From the NCBI GenBank assembly GCA_023138875.1, contig JAGLOO010000047.1, positions 26,056 to 90,055 on the forward strand: a stretch of 64,000 nt of DNA, read 5' to 3'. The position numbers and the translations under genes are program-made. The stretch's first letter is position 1. Each line of letters begins with the position of its first letter. Shown piece by piece: positions 2,912-62,425 of the stretch. The notes below the pieces were generated by a model. The model was not told the origin of the DNA. It made no database searches and worked only from the letters and a program-made list of their open reading frames with translations. This stretch comes from Bacteroidales bacterium (GTDB lineage: Bacteria; Bacteroidota; Bacteroidia; Bacteroidales; GCA-2748055).

Positions 2912-5212
2912 ATGAGACAGTTCTATATCCTTATCCTTGTGCTGTTCCCGGGTTATATGTCTGTGTTTTCCCAGGAAATGGGACTGAAGGAAAGCAAGGA
3001 ATTTAATAGCCTGGGCGACTATGCCAGGCTGGCACAATTTTCGCCTTACCGGAATTATTTTGCCTATACCATTGGTAATAATACCCTTCGGATCTATAAC
3101 CGGGACTGGGAGAAGGTATTTGAACACCAGGGAAATCCCAGGGCAGTGGGAGGGGTGTTCGCCTTTTCACCTGATGAGAAGTACCTGGCCTACGGACGTT
3201 ATAAAGGGAACAATGATATTGCCATTATTCGACTCGAAGACATGAAGGTAATCCAGGTAATTAACCGGCATTCTGAGTACATTACTCACCTGGAATTTAG
3301 CAACGACGGGGGTTTATTAGTGTCTACCTCATCGGATGGTAGCATGATCATCTGGCAGCATAGGAACGAAGCATTTCATATCCACCAGGTATTTAGTGAC
3401 TTCGAAACCTACCCGAATGAATCGAGTTTCAGCTTTGATGACCGATTCCTGGTGACAGGGGATACCCGGGGCCATGTGCTGGTATTGAAGCGCAGGGAAT
3501 CCACATATGAAAAATTCCAGGAATTCCAGTATCGCAGGCATAGTGTGAAAACTGTGGTTTTTAACCCTAAAGTGGATGAATTTGTGACAGGATCCCTCTA
3601 CGGTTTAAGGAGGTACAGGTTACAGAGTGACGCATTTGTGTTCACCGACTCTGTGGATGACAAAGCCAATGTCGACAATCCGGTCTGTTTCAGTCCTGAC
3701 GGCAGGTACCTGGGAACGTCCAACTACCAGACTGCAGTGATATTCAGGGTATCAACAGACTCCATTTACCCGGTGGATTTTGTATTCAGGCATATGGATA
3801 ATGTATTTGGGGCCACCTTTTCGGAAGACGGAGAGTTTTTCACCACCTTCAGCAGTGATCAACGGGTCATTGTATGGGAAATCGATCATATAAATCCTTC
3901 CGATAAATCCCGGGTCGTGTCATGGCTCAACGCTGATCTTTCACTGGCTCAGCGTCACGCACTGACTCCTTATACAGTGGGCCAGATCATTGGCGCGGTC
4001 GATAAATTTCTGATGCTGCCAAGGGATGAGTTTGAAACATCTGTAGAGTACAATGAGCGGTTGGAAAAGCTCAGTGATTGGACATTGATGATGCTTCAGA
4101 AGGAAATGGAAAGCCTATACAGTGTTCGATCCAGGTCCGGCATGATCGAAATCCCCATCCAGGGCCTGGTGGGTTACAATGCAGATCTTCAAATCTATAA
4201 GATCAAATTCATGGGGACCGAAGCAGGTGTGAGTATTCCCATTCCTGCTGCCCGGAATTTCAAGGAACAGTGGAAAAAAGGGTACATCAGGGCAACAAAA
4301 GAACGCAGTGCTGACGGGGAGAGCTACCGGTATGGGTCTTTCGAGCTTTATAATCCTGCTGATAAAAAGTATTATGTTTTGAATCCACTGGAAAATCCTT
4401 TTCATCTGGAGAATGAAGAGAAGGTGATCCGATCGACCTTCCGGGCTGAACCCGGTAGCGATAGCCTGACGGTAAAGGGAAAAGGTACTACCTATGCATT
4501 GATGTTTGCCTCCAATGTGTATGATTATTATGCAGACCTGGTAAATCCGGTACTGGATGCGCAGACCATTGCCGCTGAGCTGGGAGACAGTTATGGAGTG
4601 GTTTCAGAGGTTGTGATCAATCCAACCCTCTCTGAGACTGCATCGGTCATCAGAGAATTTGCATCCCGGGCTTACAATCCGGAAGATAACCTGATGGTCT
4701 TTTTTGCCGGACATGGGGTGTATGATGAAGTATTCAGGGAAGGGTATGTCATTTCGCGGGATTCCCGCATGGATGATCTGGGCAAGACCTCCTACCTATC
4801 CCATTCCAACCTGCGGACCATGATCAATAACATCGATTGTCCCCATATTTTCCTGGTGATGGATGTCTGTTTCGGGGGCACTTTTGATCCCCATCTGGCT
4901 TCCATGCACCGGGGTGCACCGGCAGTTTATGCAGACATTTCTACACAGGAGTTTGTGGAGCGGAAACTGAAGTACAAAACCCGCCTGTACCTGACTTCCG
5001 GGGGGAAAGAGTATGTGCCCGATGGAAGACCGGGTTTCCATTCTCCCTTTGCCAGGCGTTTTATTGAATCACTGCGCTACTATGGTGGGGATGACGGCGT
5101 GCTGACCACTTCTGAAATACTCCAGTTTGTAGAAAAGGTAAATCCCCAACCCAGGTTTGGTGAGTTTGGGGATAATGAACCTGGCAGCGATTTTATCCTG
5201 GTGGTACGGTAG
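2912..5212 (+). CDS. Secreted WD40-repeat / caspase-like (peptidase C14) fusion protein
   Basis: The ORF track starts at 2867. The ATG at 2912 gives a signal-peptide-like start, MRQFYILILVLFPGYMSVFSQ. WD40-like repeats are present (LEFSNDGGLLVSTSSDGSMIIWQ, FSEDGEFFTTFSSDQRVIVWEI, among others). The C-terminal caspase fold has His in FFAGHGV (codon at 4712-4714) and Cys in VMDVCFGG (codon at 4868-4870). Confidence 0.8.
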   Translation: MRQFYILILVLFPGYMSVFSQEMGLKESKEFNSLGDYARLAQFSPYRNYFAYTIGNNTLRIYNRDWEKVFEHQGNPRAVGGVFAFSPDEKYLAYGRYKGNNDIAIIRLEDMKVIQVINRHSEYITHLEFSNDGGLLVSTSSDGSMIIWQHRNEAFHIHQVFSDFETYPNESSFSFDDRFLVTGDTRGHVLVLKRRESTYEKFQEFQYRRHSVKTVVFNPKVDEFVTGSLYGLRRYRLQSDAFVFTDSVDDKANVDNPVCFSPDGRYLGTSNYQTAVIFRVSTDSIYPVDFVFRHMDNVFGATFSEDGEFFTTFSSDQRVIVWEIDHINPSDKSRVVSWLNADLSLAQRHALTPYTVGQIIGAVDKFLMLPRDEFETSVEYNERLEKLSDWTLMMLQKEMESLYSVRSRSGMIEIPIQGLVGYNADLQIYKIKFMGTEAGVSIPIPAARNFKEQWKKGYIRATKERSADGESYRYGSFELYNPADKKYYVLNPLENPFHLENEEKVIRSTFRAEPGSDSLTVKGKGTTYALMFASNVYDYYADLVNPVLDAQTIAAELGDSYGVVSEVVINPTLSETASVIREFASRAYNPEDNLMVFFAGHGVYDEVFREGYVISRDSRMDDLGKTSYLSHSNLRTMINNIDCPHIFLVMDVCFGGTFDPHLASMHRGAPAVYADISTQEFVERKLKYKTRLYLTSGGKEYVPDGRPGFHSPFARRFIESLRYYGGDDGVLTTSEILQFVEKVNPQPRFGEFGDNEPGSDFILVVR

Positions 5213-30236: not shown

Positions 30237-30266
30237 AAAAAAAAACAGGTCCCCCCGGAACCTGTT
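30237..30266 (-). terminator. Intrinsic terminator after dnaA
   Basis: The minus strand reads AACAGGT-tccgggggg-ACCTGTT followed by T9, 11 nt after the dnaA stop. Confidence 0.75.
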
Positions 30267-31698: not shown

Positions 31699-32055
31699 TG
31701 CAAACGTCGGTTTTAGGTTCAGGTTAATATGTTAAAAGCTTTCGGGATTCCCTTAAGCAAAGATTGTGAAAAAAAAGTAGAAAAAAAATTCAAATTCACT
31801 TAAAAATCTCAGAATAACTATATCAGTTTTAAGGTCAATTCTTTATAGATTGAAAAAAAAATGATATTTTTTATTTATTTGATAATCAAGACTATACCTA
31901 AATTTATTCCTAAAATAATCTTAATAAATTGTAATTTAAACCTTTAGCTGACCCAATTCAATATTTGGTTTAATGCAGATGTCCGAGATTGAGGCACATT
32001 GGTCAATAGAAAATGCTAAATGGTCAAAAAAGATGAATGTTTATTCTCTTCAAGA
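31699..32055. other. AT-rich dnaA upstream region (dnaA promoter, possible oriC/DUE candidate)
   Basis: 357-bp non-coding region with several A8-A9 tracts. There are only degenerate DnaA-box-like words and no perfect TTATCCACA. Confidence 0.3.
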
Positions 32056-37002: not shown

Positions 37003-37076
37003 CTGCTTACTCTTACAGTGGCTCACATATATACCAGTTTTTTTTTCATTTTAACACTACTTAAAACTAAGAAAAG

Positions 37077-45137: not shown

Positions 45138-47522
45138 ATGAGAAAGGTTCTTCTGATTTTACAAATAGTATTCTTGAGCGTTGCAATATTTGGACAGAAC
45201 AGGTTCACTGTAAGTGGATATATTTCGGATGCCGCTACCGGTGAGAAACTAATTCAGGCACATATTTTTGACGCTAATAGTGAATCCGGAACAGTATCCA
45301 ATCTATATGGTTTCTATAGCATCACACTCCCTGAAGATTCAATAAAGGTGATCGCATCATATGTGGGTTATAAGCAGCGGGATCATCATTTTTATCTCGA
45401 TAAGGATATAACACTAAATATCAAGCTTCAGCAGTCCCTTGCCATAGAGGAAGTTCAGGTTGTCGCGAGAGAAAGGGTTCTTATCGAAGAAGAATCACAA
45501 ATGAGCATGATTGATATTTCTATTAAACAAATAAAGAGGATGCCTTCACTCCTGGGAGAAGTGGATGTGATAAAGGCAATTCAGTTGTTGCCAGGCGTAC
45601 AATCCGGAAGCGAAGGACAAAGTGGCTTATATGTCAGGGGTGGTGGTCCCGACCAGAACCTTATTCTTTTAGATGGGGTTCCTGTTTACAACGCATCACA
45701 CTTATTCGGTTTCTTTTCTGTGTTTAATGCAAATGCGATCAGTGATGTCAAGCTGATTAAAGGTGGTTTTCCTGCGCGTTATGGCGGCCGGCTTTCATCC
45801 GTATTGGATATCCGGATGAAGGAAGGTCATAAAAGTGAATATCACGGAAATGCTTCCATCGGACTGATATCATCAAAGTTCACATTTGAGGGACCTGTTA
45901 TTAAAGATAAAACATCGTTTATCATATCCGGCAGACGAACCTATCTGGATGTTCTGGCACGACCTATTATTAAGAAGTCGTTTTCCAAACAGGGAGGAAA
46001 AGGAAACGCCGGTTATTATTTTTACGATTTAAATGCCAAGATAAATCATACATTCAGTCACAAAGACAGATTGTATTTAAGTATGTACATGGGGAATGAC
46101 AAATTCTATTTCAGCAATCAAAACAAGAATGAGGATTTTAAAACTGAAGAAGCTAACAAGTTAGGGTGGGGTAATATGATTACTGCTGCCAGGTGGAATC
46201 ACTTATGGACTGGTAAGCTATTCTCAAATACAACCTTGACTTATAGCAGTTATAATTTAGGTACGCTGTTTTCATACAAAACAGAAGATCTCGTTAAGGA
46301 TAAGTTTGCAGAGGACGCAAAAATGGAATACTCATCAGGAATAGACGATATTGCCCTGAACATTGATTTTGACTATATACCTAATCCGGATCATTTCGTT
46401 CGTTTCGGGGTAAAGGGCATTCGCCATCAATTCAACCCGGGTTTGTTCGATATGCATTTTTTAATTGATGAAGAGGGAACTCAATCTACATTTGATACTA
46501 TTATTGGACAAAAAAAATTGCAGGCTTCTGAATTTGCAGTATATCTGGAAGACGATTATCGCATAACAGATAATTTCAAAGCGAACATTGGTCTTCATTT
46601 TTCAGGCTTTTTGATGGATAATAAGCATTATACTTCACTGCAACCCAGGCTTAGCCTTCGCTATTTGTTGCCGGGAAAGATTGCAATTAAGGCAAGCTAT
46701 GCCAATATGCGGCAGTATATTCATCTCCTGGCATTTAGCAGTATCGGTCTGCCAACTGACCTTTGGCTGCCTACTACGGAAAAGGTAAAACCACAGGATT
46801 CCTGGCAGGTAGCTCTTGGCCTGGCTAAAACCATTAATAATAAGTATGAAGTCAGTCTGGAAGGTTATTACAAGGAGATGAACAACGTTATTTCTTATAA
46901 AGAGGGAGCTGGTCTTTTTCAGTTCGATGACTGGCAGGAACGTATCACACAAGGAAGGGGAGAAGCGTACGGTGTGGAATTATTTGTGAATAAGAAAAGA
47001 GGGAAGTGGACGGGATGGTTGGGATACACACTTTCATGGTCCTGGAGGCAGTTTGATGATTTGAATTTCGGAAAAAAGTATCACTATAAATACGATAGAC
47101 GTCAGGATGTTTCCCTTGTGGTCAACTATGATATTACCGAAAATATTCTTTTTTCAGGTACATGGGTCTATGGAACGGGGAATGCAATTACGCTGGCCAA
47201 TTCCTCATATTACGGATTTTTCCCATCCGATGACGGATCTCATGAGAGTATTGAAACAAATTATTACGCTGATAAGAATAATTTCAGGATGAAACCATAT
47301 CATCGTTTGGATTTTGGTTTCGATTTCATTAAAGAGAAGAAAAAGTATACCAGGAAATGGTCTGTTGGGGTATACAATGCTTATTCAAGAAAAAATCCGT
47401 TTTTCCTGAGGATTGACACAAATCATTCATACGAAAACGGAGAGCCTAAAATTGAAAAAAAATTGGTGCAGATCAGCCTGTTCCCGATTATACCATATGT
47501 GACTTATAGTATTGATTTTTAA
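45138..47522 (+). CDS. TonB-dependent receptor (CarboxypepD_reg + plug + barrel, no STN)
   Basis: FTVSGYISDAATGEKLIQAHIF..., a plug (IQLLPGVQSGSEGQSGLYVRGGGPDQN) and a terminal ...YVTYSIDF. It is a paralog of 40937-43528. Confidence 0.85.
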   Translation: MRKVLLILQIVFLSVAIFGQNRFTVSGYISDAATGEKLIQAHIFDANSESGTVSNLYGFYSITLPEDSIKVIASYVGYKQRDHHFYLDKDITLNIKLQQSLAIEEVQVVARERVLIEEESQMSMIDISIKQIKRMPSLLGEVDVIKAIQLLPGVQSGSEGQSGLYVRGGGPDQNLILLDGVPVYNASHLFGFFSVFNANAISDVKLIKGGFPARYGGRLSSVLDIRMKEGHKSEYHGNASIGLISSKFTFEGPVIKDKTSFIISGRRTYLDVLARPIIKKSFSKQGGKGNAGYYFYDLNAKINHTFSHKDRLYLSMYMGNDKFYFSNQNKNEDFKTEEANKLGWGNMITAARWNHLWTGKLFSNTTLTYSSYNLGTLFSYKTEDLVKDKFAEDAKMEYSSGIDDIALNIDFDYIPNPDHFVRFGVKGIRHQFNPGLFDMHFLIDEEGTQSTFDTIIGQKKLQASEFAVYLEDDYRITDNFKANIGLHFSGFLMDNKHYTSLQPRLSLRYLLPGKIAIKASYANMRQYIHLLAFSSIGLPTDLWLPTTEKVKPQDSWQVALGLAKTINNKYEVSLEGYYKEMNNVISYKEGAGLFQFDDWQERITQGRGEAYGVELFVNKKRGKWTGWLGYTLSWSWRQFDDLNFGKKYHYKYDRRQDVSLVVNYDITENILFSGTWVYGTGNAITLANSSYYGFFPSDDGSHESIETNYYADKNNFRMKPYHRLDFGFDFIKEKKKYTRKWSVGVYNAYSRKNPFFLRIDTNHSYENGEPKIEKKLVQISLFPIIPYVTYSIDF

Positions 47523-48915: not shown

Positions 48916-49362
48916 TTATTCAGAAACGATTTCAAAGGGAATATCCACAAGAACTTCTCTATGAAGTTTCACTGTAGCCGAATAGTTACCAATCTCCTTG
49001 ATCAAATCATCTTTGATTGAAATATTCTTTCTTTCCAATTCAAATCCCTTTTCATTCAAAGCTTCTGCAATCTGGATGGTATTTACAGAACCGAAAATCT
49101 TGCCTTTGGTGCTGGTCTTAGCGCCAATGGTCAGAGATATTTTCTTTAATTGTTCTGCCATCTGTAGTGCTGCTACCTTCAATTGTTCTTCTTTGTGAGC
49201 ACGCTGACGAAGAATCTCGGCGTGAACTTTTTTTGCCTGTTCAGTTGCATTGATTGCATAACCCTTAGGGATCAGGTAATTCCTTGCATAGCCATTTTTT
49301 ACTATAACTATCTCGTCTTTGTGTCCGAGGTTGGGCATATCCTGTTTTAAGATCACATTCAT
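48916..49362 (-). CDS. rplI: 50S ribosomal protein L9
   Basis: MNVILKQDMPNLGHKDEIVIVKNGYARNYLIPKGYA is the canonical L9 N-terminus. Confidence 0.95.
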   Translation of the reverse strand: MNVILKQDMPNLGHKDEIVIVKNGYARNYLIPKGYAINATEQAKKVHAEILRQRAHKEEQLKVAALQMAEQLKKISLTIGAKTSTKGKIFGSVNTIQIAEALNEKGFELERKNISIKDDLIKEIGNYSATVKLHREVLVDIPFEIVSE

Positions 49363-49378
49363 TTCAAGTTCCTCCTAT

Positions 49379-49648
49379 TTACTTTAGCATATCGATTACA
49401 TAGGGAAGCATTGCCAGGTGCCTTGAACGTTTGATGGCCACTGCAATTTTTCTCTGGTACTTCAAAGAAGTTCCGGTTAACCTCCGGGGAAGTATCTTAC
49501 CCTGTTCGTTCAGAAATTTCTTAAGGAATTCAGGATCTTTATAATCTATATATTTGATCCTGTTTTTTCTGAACCTGCAATATTTCTTCTTCTTGATCTC
49601 AACCGAAGGGGGAGTTAAATATCTGATTTCCGAATTATTTTGTGCCAT
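49379..49648 (-). CDS. rpsR: 30S ribosomal protein S18
   Basis: KKKYCRF...[31 protein letters not shown] is S18. The start overlaps the rpsF stop (TAATG). Confidence 0.95.
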
Positions 49649-50004
49649 TATTCATCCTCCTGTTTTTGTTCTGCTGATTTTCTTGCTCTCTTCTTCTCAC
49701 TGTAAACTACCGCGTATTTTTCCATCTTCATGGTAAGGAACCGGATGATTCGCTCATCCCTCCGGTACTCTGTTTCAAGTTTCGCGATTAAGCCAGGCTC
49801 AGCTCTGAACTCGATCAGGTGGTAAAAGCCAGTGGATTTTTTCTGAATGGGGTAAGCAAGTTTCTTCAAACCCCAATCTTCCTCATGTACGATCTCACCT
49901 TTGCTATCGGTGATCACTTTTTTGAATTTGTTAACCGCTTCCTTCATCTGGCTTTCAGACAAAACGGGAGTAGCAATGAAAACGGTTTCGTATTGGTTCA
50001 ACAT
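49648..50004 (-). CDS. rpsF: 30S ribosomal protein S6
   Basis: The ATG at 50004 gives [17 protein letters not shown]..., the canonical S6 start. The track extension to 50079 is not S6-like. Confidence 0.9.
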
Positions 50005-50036
50005 GTAATAAAATTTAGTTATTAAAAAATCGACTG

Positions 50037-50044
50037 CAAAAGTA
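50037..50044 (-). promoter_or_regulatory. Candidate -7 promoter box (TACTTTTG) for rpsF-rpsR-rplI
   Basis: The minus strand reads CTACTTTTGCAG, 33 nt upstream of the rpsF ATG. The core TACTTTTGC is the same as the one upstream of rplS. Confidence 0.4.
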
Positions 50045-50095
50045 GGAAGTTTTTGAATAACAGCCAAGAATGCATTCATTTTTCTCTAAACAATT

Positions 50096-50141
50096 TCACT
50101 TTCCACCTTTCTCACTTTCCACTTTTTTACTATTCCACTTT
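50096..50141 (+). repeat. Three direct TTCCAC(C/T)TT repeats at exact 16-bp spacing
   Basis: TTCCACCTT at 50101, TTCCACTTT at 50117 and TTCCACTTT at 50133. The first two extend to 15-mers, TCACTTTCCACCTTT / TCACTTTCCACTTTT. The array lies between the rpsF and dnaX promoter candidates. Confidence 0.6.
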
Positions 50142-50167
50142 CTAACTAAGTTGTTATCTTTAACAAT

Positions 50168-50175
50168 TAATTTTG
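50168..50175 (+). promoter_or_regulatory. Candidate -7 promoter box (TAATTTTG) for dnaX
   Basis: Matches TAnnTTTG only 5 nt before the dnaX ATG at 50181, which implies a leaderless or near-leaderless mRNA if it is used. Confidence 0.3.
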
Positions 50176-50180
50176 AGTAC

Positions 50181-51938
50181 ATGGATAAATATATTGTATC
50201 GGCCCGTAAGTACAGACCCGCTAGTTTTGGCGATGTCATTGGGCAATCTTCCATTACCACTACACTCAAGAATTCCATACTGAATAATCACCTTGGACAT
50301 GCGTACCTGTTTAGTGGTCCCCGCGGAGTGGGGAAAACCACCTGTGCACGGATTTTTGCCAAAACCATCAATTGTTTCAATATATCCGATGCAGGTGAAG
50401 CATGCAACCAGTGCGAATCCTGCCAGTCATTCAATGAAAACCGTTCTTACAACATTCATGAACTGGATGCAGCATCCAATAACTCGGTGGATGATATCAG
50501 GACGCTGACCGAGCAGGTAAGGATCCCTCCTCAGATCGGTTCTTACAGCATATACATCATAGATGAGGTGCACATGCTTTCACAGGCGGCATTCAATGCG
50601 TTTCTGAAGACCCTGGAAGAACCTCCGCGTCATGCCGTTTTTGTGCTGGCCACTACAGAAAAGCACAAAATCATTCCTACCATTTTATCCCGTTGTCAGA
50701 TCTTTGATTTCAACAGGATCAGGATTGAGGATGCGGTCGAATACATGAAACAGATAGCTCTTAAGGAGTCGCTTGACTACGAAGAAGATGCGCTGCATAT
50801 TATCGCTCAAAAAGCCGACGGGGCTATGCGAGATGCCCTATCCATCTTTGACCAGGTAGTGAGCTTTGCCGGAGAAAAGATTACCTACCAGGATGTTATT
50901 AAGAACCTTAATATCCTGGATTATGAGTATTTCTTCAGGCTTACATCATCCATGCTTGAAAATAATACTGCATCTGCACTGTTGCTTTTCAATGAGGTCC
51001 TGGTCAAAGGATTCGACGCCAGGAATTTCATCAATGGATATGCTGCACATCTGCGTGATCTCATGGTATGTAAAAACCCGGAGACCATACAGCTTATGGA
51101 GGTGGGTGCCGGCATTAAGGAAAAATACCTTTCCCAGTCTGACCAGGTTTCCCTGCCTTTTCTCTATGCCGGGCTGGATATCTGTAACCAGGCAGACATA
51201 CAATTCAGATCAAGCAGAAACCAGAGATTGACCATTGAACTTGCCCTTGTGAAGCTGGCCAATCTCTCAGAGGTTCAAAAAAAAAAATCAGTAACTGAAC
51301 CGGTTGTTCCGGCAAGTTCGGAGCAAACTTTAAAAGCGGAACCATCCGCTGAGACGCTACAACCCACAATAGCGGAACCATCCGCTAAACCTGAGCAACC
51401 CTTAGAGTCTGAGAACGCAGAGCACAACAATAACGGTAGCAGGGTAGTAAGAAAGCCCTCCATATCCATCAAGGAGACCCTGCAGGGAGTATCAGCAGAA
51501 CCGGAGAAAGTTGAAGAGGTTGTTGCTTCGGAGGGAGAGGTTGAATCCCTCCCGGCCCAGGAGAAGGAAGCAGTGGATCCGGACCGGATCCTGAATGCAT
51601 GGAACGACTATGCTACTTCCATCGAGAAAAGCAATCCCCGGATCTTCAGCACCCTCAAGTACAACCGACCGGTGATAAAGGCCGATGGTACGATTATGGT
51701 ACTCCTCAATAGTGAAGCCCAGCGTGATCACTTCTTACAGAGTATTAAATCGAAGATGGTCGGCTTCATTCAAAATGCTACCGGGATGGACTCGGTGGAA
51801 ATCATGACCGAGGTTGCTGAAGGTGAGCAGAATGGAAAGAAGATATATACAGAACAGGATAAGCTGGATTTCCTGATGAATAAGAATCCTGAGCTGGGTC
51901 ACTTGAAATCGCTGTTTAATCTTGATTTTGATGATTGA
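50181..51938 (+). CDS. dnaX: DNA polymerase III subunits gamma/tau
   Basis: The ATG at 50181 gives MDKYIVSARKYRPASFGDVIGQ. The Walker A motif is GPRGVGKTT, the zinc module is CNQCESCQ, and SRC is present in TILSRCQIFDF. A P/E/A-rich linker and a tau C-terminal domain follow. Confidence 0.92.
   Translation: MDKYIVSARKYRPASFGDVIGQSSITTTLKNSILNNHLGHAYLFSGPRGVGKTTCARIFAKTINCFNISDAGEACNQCESCQSFNENRSYNIHELDAASNNSVDDIRTLTEQVRIPPQIGSYSIYIIDEVHMLSQAAFNAFLKTLEEPPRHAVFVLATTEKHKIIPTILSRCQIFDFNRIRIEDAVEYMKQIALKESLDYEEDALHIIAQKADGAMRDALSIFDQVVSFAGEKITYQDVIKNLNILDYEYFFRLTSSMLENNTASALLLFNEVLVKGFDARNFINGYAAHLRDLMVCKNPETIQLMEVGAGIKEKYLSQSDQVSLPFLYAGLDICNQADIQFRSSRNQRLTIELALVKLANLSEVQKKKSVTEPVVPASSEQTLKAEPSAETLQPTIAEPSAKPEQPLESENAEHNNNGSRVVRKPSISIKETLQGVSAEPEKVEEVVASEGEVESLPAQEKEAVDPDRILNAWNDYATSIEKSNPRIFSTLKYNRPVIKADGTIMVLLNSEAQRDHFLQSIKSKMVGFIQNATGMDSVEIMTEVAEGEQNGKKIYTEQDKLDFLMNKNPELGHLKSLFNLDFDD
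51277..51287 (+). other. A11 slippery run inside dnaX (candidate frameshift/transcriptional slippage site)
   Basis: The 0 frame reads CAA AAA AAA AAA TCA GTA ACT GAA. The -1 frame reads ATC AGT AAC TGA. The +1 frame reads AAT CAG TAA. Confidence 0.5.
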
Positions 51939-58651: not shown

Positions 58652-60664
<2,013 letters not shown>

Positions 60665-60721
60665 TTAAACAAAAGTAAAAAATATTTCTCCTTTAGGTTT
60701 TATTCTCTACTTTTAGGAGCA

Positions 60722-62425
60722 ATGGGAATGGATATTTCAAGTAAATACAGGCTGGCTCTGCTGGGATCCATTTTGATCACCGCGATCATTTCGATGGATG
60801 CCCAGCTTCAGTTTCCAGGAAAACCGATGGGGGATTACCGCCAACTGAAGGCTGCTGATGTGATGTATGTGCTGCCACCGGTGGATCCGCTGGAAATTGA
60901 AGCAGGAATGCTGTCCAACGAGTCAAGCCAAAAGAAACCTTTTCAGTTTGCAATAGAGCGGCCTGTTGATATATCTCCTGATCTGCATGGAAGCTGGGTG
61001 AAACAGGACGGGAACCGCATCTGGAGGGTGCACATCCTATCTCCCGATGCGTATTCCATGGGCCTGGTATTTAATGAGTATGCACTTGAAGAAGGTGTAA
61101 AGGTTTTGATCTATGATCCCGGCCAGGATCATATCAAAGGGGCTTTTACATCGGGAAACAACAAAGCCTCGCGTATTCTGGCCGTTGGACATCTTTCGGG
61201 TGATGAACTGATTGTTGAATTACAAGTGCCTGCTGATGTTCCGGATTATGGACGTTTGAGCATAGAATCCATTTCCCATGCTTTTCTGCCGCTGGTTCTG
61301 AATGATCAAAAGAAAGACGGAAGGTTTGGCCGTTCCCAGGAATGTGAAATAGATATTAATTGTGAAGAAGGAGCTGACTGGCAATTGAGCAAACGATCGG
61401 TGGTCAGAATCTTCACAACAACACAGTATTGTACAGGTGTGCTGGTCAACAATACATCCTATGATGGTAAGCCTTATGTCATTACTGCAGAACACTGTAT
61501 AAACACAGAGAATAATGCCCAACGATCAGTTTTTGTATTTAATTATGAAAGTCCTGAATGTTTTGGCAATGACGGATCTGTTGCTATGTCAATTTCAGGA
61601 TCTGAACTTCTCGCAGTAGGAGATAGCGTTGATTTCTGCCTTGTGAAATTATCTGTTACTCCTCCCGATTCCTTCGATGTATATTACACAGGATGGGATC
61701 TGAACAATAATCAGGATTTCGCTACTACTACGATCCATCATCCTGAAGGAGACGTAAAAAAAATCTCGTACGATTCTGAAGCGCCATCTACACCTGCCAA
61801 TATTGATGACTTGCCAAACAGCGATATAAGAGACTACCACTATTTCTCATATTGGTGGATTAAGCAATGGGATATCGGATCAACGGAAGGAGGATCATCA
61901 GGATCACCTTTATTCAATTCGGACAGAAGAATGATCGGTAGTTTGAGTGGAGGCAGGGCAAAATGCGGGGATTCCATTGGATATGATGCAGAAAATGATC
62001 GGATTATATATAGAAAAATCTTCAACATAGATGATTACTACACCAAGCTCAACGTTGCATGGGATTATTATCCCGAAGACGACCGTTCACTAAAACCCTG
62101 GCTTGATCCCATGAATACAGGTGATGAGAAAATTGATGGCTATCATCCCACCCATACAGATCCGCCGGGAGTGTTGGGTAATTCCAGCTTTATCCTTTAC
62201 CCAAATCCGGTAAATGAGGTTCTTTACATCTCCTCCGGACCGGGATCAGGGGAAAAGATTTCATACCAGGTCTTTGATCTTTCCGGAGTCCGGAGGTTAT
62301 CAGGATACGGAGATGAAGCCGGACCGGTGAAAATCAGTACAGGATCTCTGGAACCGGGGATTTACCTGATCGGTGTTGAAGCAGGTGGAAGCCGGGAATT
62401 TCTCAAATTTATTATAACACGATGA
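60722..62425 (+). CDS. Trypsin-like (S1, lysyl-endopeptidase-like) serine protease with a T9SS C-terminal sorting domain
   Basis: The ATG at 60722 gives MGMDISSKYRLALLGSILITAIISMDAQ. The catalytic triad contexts are VITAEHCI (His), DFCLVKL (Asp) and EGGSSGSPLF (Ser). The C-terminus, FILYPNPVNEVLYIS...GIYLIGVEAGGSREFLKFIITR, is a T9SS type-A CTD. The track start at 60515 is a GTG inside ligA. Confidence 0.8.
   Translation: MGMDISSKYRLALLGSILITAIISMDAQLQFPGKPMGDYRQLKAADVMYVLPPVDPLEIEAGMLSNESSQKKPFQFAIERPVDISPDLHGSWVKQDGNRIWRVHILSPDAYSMGLVFNEYALEEGVKVLIYDPGQDHIKGAFTSGNNKASRILAVGHLSGDELIVELQVPADVPDYGRLSIESISHAFLPLVLNDQKKDGRFGRSQECEIDINCEEGADWQLSKRSVVRIFTTTQYCTGVLVNNTSYDGKPYVITAEHCINTENNAQRSVFVFNYESPECFGNDGSVAMSISGSELLAVGDSVDFCLVKLSVTPPDSFDVYYTGWDLNNNQDFATTTIHHPEGDVKKISYDSEAPSTPANIDDLPNSDIRDYHYFSYWWIKQWDIGSTEGGSSGSPLFNSDRRMIGSLSGGRAKCGDSIGYDAENDRIIYRKIFNIDDYYTKLNVAWDYYPEDDRSLKPWLDPMNTGDEKIDGYHPTHTDPPGVLGNSSFILYPNPVNEVLYISSGPGSGEKISYQVFDLSGVRRLSGYGDEAGPVKISTGSLEPGIYLIGVEAGGSREFLKFIITR

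Follow-up and report, generated by a model that had tools for sequence, protein, structure and literature searches.

Production of tau together with gamma from a single dnaX gene has arisen at least three times in evolution, with ribosomal frameshifting, transcriptional slippage or proteolysis as the mechanism. In Escherichia coli, the C-terminal part of tau binds the polymerase and the helicase; the cellular need for gamma is still debated. The present work concerns the dnaX gene on a stretch of 64,000 nucleotides of Bacteroidales DNA (contig JAGLOO010000047.1 of assembly GCA_023138875.1; hereafter the window, with positions counted from its first letter). In this gene, an uninterrupted run of eleven adenines (A11) is probably a selected transcriptional-slippage site, at which RNA polymerase would realign in the manner described for Thermus thermophilus dnaX.

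According to two summaries of the work of Larsen et al. in 2000 (PMC1088944; PMC5009743), T. thermophilus dnaX combines an A9 run with a single tau open reading frame (ORF) and with stops in both other frames, and slippage at the run has been proven experimentally. In E. coli, tau is established as the essential dnaX product, and it is the AAG codon that makes the A_AAA_AAG frameshift site so shifty (PMC5009743). Two-ORF dnaX genes with A10 runs were described by Antonov et al. in 2013 for Flavobacterium johnsoniae, F. psychrophilum, Cytophaga hutchinsonii, Capnocytophaga ochracea, several Chlorobi and Coraliomargarita (PMC3711429, Supplementary Figure S3), and the Thermus mechanism was inferred for them (PMC3711429). 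One-ORF members are not listed in that study because the GeneTack program could find only frameshifted genes. The review by Atkins et al. points out that, at an efficiency of about 50%, a single-base change can swap which of the two products needs the shift (PMC5009743). A literature search returned no experimental studies of dnaX recoding in Bacteroidota.

The A11 Run and Its Two Out-of-Frame Stops

The window gene encodes a full-length tau in one continuous frame. The elements on which the argument depends are the following.

50181–51938, plus strand: dnaX coding sequence for tau (585 aa, 65.5 kDa, stop included), matched by NCBIfam PRK14971 with 752 bits.
50901–51287, plus strand: clamp-loader domain III (residues 241–369), from Pfam PF12169 (DNA_pol3_gamma3) and the alignment with the E. 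coli gamma/tau structure.
51277–51287, plus strand: slippage-prone A11 run on a T11 template, read C-AA AAA AAA AAA as Q366 K367 K368 K369 (exact base count).
51292–51294, plus strand: TAA stop of the +1 frame, reached after one codon (AAT CAG TAA; frame reading), conserved in relatives.
51296–51298, plus strand: TGA stop of the -1 frame, reached after three codons (ATC AGT AAC TGA; frame reading), conserved in relatives.
51288–51935, plus strand: tau-only region, made up of a P/E/A-rich linker and a C-terminal domain (PF28557 in the C-terminal part), which the predicted gamma would lack.

The segment 51270–51320 reads GAGGTTCAAAAAAAAAAATCAGTAACTGAACCGGTTGTTCCGGCAAGTTCG. Across the run, the zero frame is GTT CAA AAA AAA AAA TCA GTA ACT GAA (V Q K K K S V T E), and it stays open for 216 codons past the run until the stop at 51936–51938. 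The run lies at 63% of the dnaX length, exactly at the end of domain III, whose last codons it provides. It is the longest homopolymer in the window and the sole one of at least 9 bases within any window ORF of at least 100 aa. A preliminary description made from the letters of the window had placed the run at codons 366–369 of 585, had read an early stop in each alternative frame and had called the run the longest homopolymer inside a coding sequence of the window; all of these readings are borne out, with codons counted from the ATG at 50181.

By composition, an A11 or T11 run is nothing unusual: dinucleotide-preserving shuffles of the window contain 0.27 on average, and 17 of 100 have at least one. 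Since composition alone is not significant, the case for the A11 run rests on the comparison with relatives.

Conservation of the Run at the Nucleotide Level

A scan of one genome per GTDB species yielded 80 dnaX loci, which together with the window give 81 sequences. The 30 close relatives (L001–L030), all from uncultured Bacteroidales, share 76–91% protein identity over residues 1–362 and about 77–81% DNA identity with the window; the other loci come from Prolixibacteraceae, Marinifilaceae, Sphingobacteriales, Chitinophagales and Bacteroidaceae/Prevotella. A further scan of metagenomes used a pattern consisting only of the upstream KLANLxEV codons, so that the run was excluded from the pattern. 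It gave 77 matches, of which 60 were unrelated chance matches, and only the 17 with dnaX homology were used. One locus considered as a run-less relative, L117, proved not to be dnaX and was rejected.

The comparison of orthologs proposed in the preliminary description came out in favour of its recoding candidate. A run of A10–A13 stands at the same site in 31 of 31 close sequences, that is, in all 30 relatives and the window, and a run of A10–A11 in all 17 metagenome contigs; the double stop is kept as well. Over the whole set, at least nine A's are found at the boundary between domain III and the linker in 55 of the 81 Bacteroidota sequences, with A11 (26 genes) and A10 (22) the most frequent lengths, followed by A9 (4), A13 (2) and A12 (1). 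Wherever the architecture is intact, the run is never shorter than nine.

Codon usage sets the run apart from the rest of the gene. In the first 362 codons of the 31 close genes, AAA stands for Lys 257 times and AAG 281 times (48% versus 52%), yet the Lys codons of the run are AAA throughout and AAG never. Among 177 invariant amino-acid columns with degenerate codons in these sequences, only 2 use a single codon in all, and five other invariant Lys columns are mixed, with AAA:AAG ratios of 9:22, 23:8, 11:20, 16:15 and 17:13. (One sequence was mis-indexed in the column analysis, an internal stop having been stripped by the aligner, and its run was checked directly.) The run also gains A's from neighbouring codons that differ between species, being CAA-AAA-AAA-AAA-TCA in some and TCA-AAA-AAA-AAA-ACA in others, which points to selection on the length of the run rather than on the peptide. 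Its phase relative to the codons varies among relatives and can be 0, 1 or 2. On the evidence of these alignments, the run is conserved at the nucleotide level.

An A-run is absent from the dnaX genes of Bacteroidaceae, Prevotella and Phocaeicola in the set (L032, L033, L040, L041, L044, L047, L053, L054, L063 and L072–L080).

One Open and Two Closed Frames

The stops next to the run are conserved along with it. Of the 26 close relatives whose tau is in the zero frame, 24 have a +1 stop within one codon and 22 a -1 stop within three codons. Both hold in 21 of the 26, compared with 1.5% of random codon positions in the same genes. The block NNN-NTA-[AG]NT-GAN, which comes directly past the run, persists despite variation in its amino acids (V/I/L, then T/A/I/S, then E/D), so that the double stop TA[AG]-CTGA is conserved although the encoded residues change. 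Past this block, the linker diverges completely.

The same arrangement is seen when all 55 genes with at least nine A's are considered, irrespective of which frame carries tau. Each of them has exactly one frame that runs on without a stop for over 180 codons or up to the end of its contig. The two non-tau frames are both closed within three codons in 40 of the 55 (73%, against a background of 3.2%), within five codons in 46 (background 8.1%) and within eleven codons in all 55 (background 26%).

Of these genes, 39 carry tau in the zero frame, 13 in the -1 frame and 3 in the +1 frame. The -1 genes comprise the whole Prolixibacteraceae group, including the isolates Sunxiuqinia dokdonensis DH1 and Roseimarinus sediminis DSM 28824, as well as L026–L030 inside the close clade. 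These 13 loci (L026–L030, L034, L036, L039, L045, L046, L048, L056 and L062) are of the two-ORF type of Antonov et al., with a zero-frame stop right after the run and the tau C-terminus in the -1 frame, a layout not present in the window. The +1 offset occurs in L037, L057 and L058 and was not reported by Antonov et al. in 2013 (PMC3711429). In genes with tau out of frame, the zero frame ends 0–2 codons past the run and the shifted frame reads a typical P/E/A-rich linker. The shifted frame is open for more than 200 codons, and in most loci that reach far enough it has homology to the C-terminal region of the window protein (E values from 1e-9 to 1e-64). Given that tau is essential and is out of frame in those relatives, it must arise there by slippage at the run.

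Two pairs of sister species, L016/L029 (96% identical) and L021/L030 (94%), have no other indel and differ by a single A, with A11 and tau in frame in one member and A10 and tau out of frame in the other. Each difference is either a recent frame flip or a wrong homopolymer consensus in a metagenome-assembled genome (MAG).

Absence of a Conserved Stimulatory Structure

Downstream of the run, the minimum free energy (MFE) fold places one structure that was considered as part of the signal.

51302–51329, plus strand: local RNA hairpin of the MFE fold, starting 14 nt after the run, species-specific.

The preliminary description had proposed a weak stem-loop at 51297–51319, which is not the best fold of the region. 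The segment 51288–51335 folds with an MFE of -12.3 kcal/mol (z = -1.96), a value reached by 10 of 200 shuffles. The downstream folds of 55 relatives have varied shapes with a mean z of -0.87, and RNAalifold on 26 aligned relatives gave 0 consensus pairs downstream of the run. As the hairpin is specific to the window and without consensus, a downstream stem-loop was rejected as a frameshift stimulator, and the hairpin is probably not part of the signal. A nascent-RNA hairpin upstream of the run was likewise rejected as a slippage stimulator: the 52 nt preceding the run fold no better than shuffles (z = +0.40), and the mean z of the relatives is about 0. A scan of 51150–51450 against Rfam at E ≤ 10 found no match, the DnaX frameshift element included.

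With regard to a Shine–Dalgarno-like element 5' of the heptamer, the window and many close relatives have the tetranucleotide GAGG 3–6 nt before the run. Other relatives have GGTGGT or CGGCTC in its place, and it is absent in other families, as in CACCTT-A10. The heptamer A_AAA_AAG does not occur in the window run, which contains only A_AAA_AAA. No terminator-like site was found at the run, and promoter-like matches are at chance level, so that an explanation of the run by a terminator or promoter was dropped.

Proposed Mechanism and Alternative Explanations

Some form of programmed recoding at the run is very likely, and transcriptional slippage is the form that the comparative data favour. 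On the T11 template, the all-rA:dT hybrid held by RNA polymerase could slide, and the dnaX mRNA pool would then carry A10, A11, A12, A13 and other run lengths. Messages with A11, A8 or A14 would give tau of 585, 584 or 586 residues (about 65.5 kDa). Those with A12 or A9 would be read to the TGA at 51296–51298 and give products ending in ...KKKISN (372 aa) or ...KKISN (371 aa), and those with A10 or A13 would be read to the TAA at 51292–51294 and end in ...KKNQ (370 aa) or ...KKKNQ (371 aa). The gamma-like products, of 370–372 residues and about 42 kDa, would end exactly at domain III, without the tau-only part, and the short form is predicted to be the bare clamp-loader core of domains I–III. 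Slippage would thereby take place in the window organism at the RNA level, and gamma would be expected to accumulate and to be used.

The preliminary description had left the mechanism between the Thermus and the E. coli type; of the two, Thermus-type transcriptional slippage is favoured and E. coli-type -1 ribosomal frameshifting disfavoured. In the latter, tRNA-Lys in the P and A sites would slip on the unedited A11 mRNA at A_AAA_AAA, and translation would likewise end at the TGA at 51296–51298 (...KKKISN), giving a 372-aa gamma. The run does contain two in-phase A_AAA_AAA heptamers, a -1 stop follows within three codons, a moderately stable hairpin follows in the window, and 13 relatives need a net -1 shift for tau. 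A_AAA_AAA is also among the enriched -1 heptamers in GeneTack (PMC3711429, Table S1). This mechanism is nevertheless unlikely to be the main one, because at least nine A's are always kept although seven suffice for a heptamer, because A_AAA_AAG, the shiftier heptamer, never occurs even though these genes use AAG for Lys more often than AAA, because the phase of the run varies, because no downstream structure is conserved and no Rfam match was found, and because the +1 stop, which would be of no use to pure -1 ribosomal frameshifting, is conserved as strongly as the -1 stop. Bacteroidia ribosomes, moreover, make little use of Shine–Dalgarno (SD) pairing, so that an SD-like stimulator is unlikely. 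Three relatives even need a +1 change for tau, and the occurrence of both offset directions in one gene family argues for transcriptional slippage; it is the criterion by which Antonov et al. separated transcriptional from ribosomal recoding (PMC3711429). Run lengths of at least nine also match the length at which bacterial RNA polymerases slip (PMC1088944; PMC5009743).

The remaining alternatives dispense with recoding or place the change in the DNA or in the data. If there were no recoding, the run would simply encode three Lys residues that are conserved as a hinge joining domain III to the linker, and the out-of-frame stops would be incidental. KKK is indeed conserved as a peptide, an A11 in 64 kb of such composition would not be improbable, and out-of-frame stops are common at 43% GC, where the median distance to one is 8 codons for -1 and 17 codons for +1. 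A peptide constraint, however, leaves unexplained the AAA-only usage across 31 diverged genes, the A's borrowed from flanking codons and the stops that persist through amino-acid change, the double stops in 73% of the genes against a background of 3%, and the 16 genes with an intact but out-of-frame tau C-terminus, which makes the hinge an improbable account. Phase variation at the DNA level, in which replication slippage alters the genomic run length and subpopulations switch between tau- and gamma-encoding alleles, appears less probable still. The one-A differences between the sister species do imply that run length changes on short evolutionary time scales. The out-of-frame state, however, is fixed across the Prolixibacteraceae family rather than flickering, and since tau is essential (in E. 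coli; PMC5009743), a cell with the out-of-frame allele only would die unless slippage at the RNA or ribosome level rescued it; with that requirement, phase variation collapses into recoding at the run. A sequencing or assembly artefact, in which the run would be of the wrong length or unreal, is scarcely credible. The window does come from a MAG, and homopolymers are error-prone, but the same 585-aa protein is encoded by an independent Logan assembly of SRR13892605, so that A11 is not a one-off assembly error, and the run is found in every close relative, in data from many studies and sequencing platforms.

Several observations weigh against transcriptional slippage as proposed here. With its tandem A_AAA_AAA heptamers, A11 could also support -1 ribosomal frameshifting, as a contributor or even as the dominant mechanism. 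MAGs account for many of the relatives with a shifted frame, and some of these were assembled from nanopore reads, in which homopolymer errors are common; some of the A10/A11 flips in the two sister pairs may therefore be artefacts. The run-less dnaX genes of Bacteroidaceae and Prevotella, finally, imply that gamma made via the run is not indispensable in the phylum. At least the -1 arrangement is real, as shown by its presence in isolates and its fixation throughout a family.

A broader proposition can be put forward tentatively and with somewhat less than even confidence. Slippage in Bacteroidia may be efficient enough to make the frame in which the genome encodes the essential tau C-terminus nearly neutral, and this frame would flip repeatedly among the three, even between sisters that are 94–96% identical, with a run of at least nine A's and one open and two closed frames as the only invariants. 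The +1-offset form and the one-ORF form of the uncultured Bacteroidales family would be previously undescribed.

Gene Boundaries and Further Observations

The ORF holding dnaX spans 50070–51938 on the plus strand, and the ATG at 50181 was taken as the start. The alignments of relatives and of E. coli DnaX begin at residues 1–4 of the 585-aa form, and the upstream ATG at 50070 is probably not the true start. The stretch 50070–50180 constitutes a 37-codon upstream extension of the ORF to which the homologues have no counterpart, and this extension overlaps the start of the divergent rpsF-rpsR-rplI operon (48916–50079, minus strand). The window protein is identical to MCK5137071.1, annotated as "DNA polymerase III subunit gamma/tau," from the Bacteroidales MAG GCA_030635075.1 (contig DAOVZM010000003.1).

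No tandem repeats were found in the linker of the window dnaX. In L001, L012, L017, L024 and L028, the linker after the run consists of direct repeats. The contig ends within about 100 nt 3' of the run in several relatives (L027, L028, L055, L103, L121 and L157), and in L157 the N- and C-terminal parts of dnaX are on opposite strands, probably an assembly artefact.

The run-less dnaX genes share a peptide, G-R-[RS]-P-x(2-4)-[LI]-K-P-[IL]-F, about 60–90 nt past the end of domain III and near locus position 4150. Its DNA is of the form GGGCGTAGCCC...AAGATTAAAACCC with variable codons, and the motif therefore probably belongs to the protein level. In Prolixibacteraceae, a similar [LI]-x-P-I-F comes after the run and in the tau frame; the loci noted here are L036, L039 and L062. 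Such peptides may serve in the tau-only region as a short linear motif for interaction or processing.

Shorter A-runs occur elsewhere in the window. Two A8 runs (46510–46517 and 47455–47462) lie inside the ORF of a TonB-dependent receptor (45138–47522; CarboxypepD_reg and Plug domains), and one (61756–61763) lies inside a trypsin-like protease with a T9SS sorting domain (60515–62425); the A8 runs of both genes are below the slippage threshold seen in dnaX. Other A9/T9 runs and an A8/A9 cluster (30237–30245, 31769–31861 and 37038–37046) fall outside ORFs of at least 100 aa. All of these, including the A-rich stretch at about 31.8 kb, are presumably intergenic.

Significance and Comparison with Known Systems

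With this locus, an uncultured Bacteroidales lineage gains a well-supported site of the slippage type. The tolerance of one and the same A-run for tau in each of the three frames, seen in the comparative set, is unusually direct genomic evidence of an essential replication protein depending on programmed RNA-polymerase infidelity. If the frame of tau is indeed near-neutral, these genes would offer a natural series for measuring how such infidelity sets the stoichiometry of a replisome subunit. There are consequences for annotation as well: the frame-shifted dnaX genes of Prolixibacteraceae and related MAGs should not be called pseudogenes, and a short gamma product should be added for genes like the window dnaX.

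Among the known systems, Caulobacter crescentus DnaX (bioRxiv 10.1101/2022.11.10.516041) also yields gamma without the tau C-terminus from a single gene, but there gamma arises via ClpXP proteolysis and no slippery sequence is involved. The E. coli -1 frameshift, with its A_AAA_AAG, SD-like element and stem-loop, concerns the same gene and gives tau and a C-terminally truncated gamma from an A-rich site with a -1 stop just after it. Unlike E. coli, the window has no AAG in the run, no conserved stem-loop and no Rfam match, and both alternative frames are closed. The preliminary description had put the run at the same relative position as the E. coli site, which holds only as a fraction of gene length; relative to the domains, the run falls opposite residues of about 365–368 of E. 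coli DnaX, some 60 residues upstream of the end of gamma at 431.

The two-ORF dnaX genes that Antonov et al. described in Bacteroidetes, Chlorobi and Verrucomicrobia are closer, with the same phylum represented, the same position and nature of the A-run and the same inferred mechanism. The arrangement in the window is the reverse, with tau in the zero frame and gamma as the product that would need a slip. The closest likeness in layout is to T. thermophilus: both genes have one tau ORF, a run of at least nine A's in the sense strand past the clamp-loader core and close stops in both alternative frames, and in both an mRNA whose A count departs from the templated number by anything other than a multiple of three would yield a truncated gamma. 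The window differs in having A11 rather than A9, in placing the run at 63% of the gene rather than late in it and in belonging to the phylum Bacteroidota; slippage is proven experimentally in Thermus and predicted from sequence in the window. A recoding family of this kind had already been predicted in the phylum, and the window site belongs to it as a one-ORF, Thermus-like member. The additions made by the present comparison are modest: the one-ORF form in an uncultured Bacteroidales family, the conserved double stop TA[AG]-CTGA, the arrangement with tau offset by +1, and the loss of the run from dnaX of Bacteroidaceae and Prevotella.

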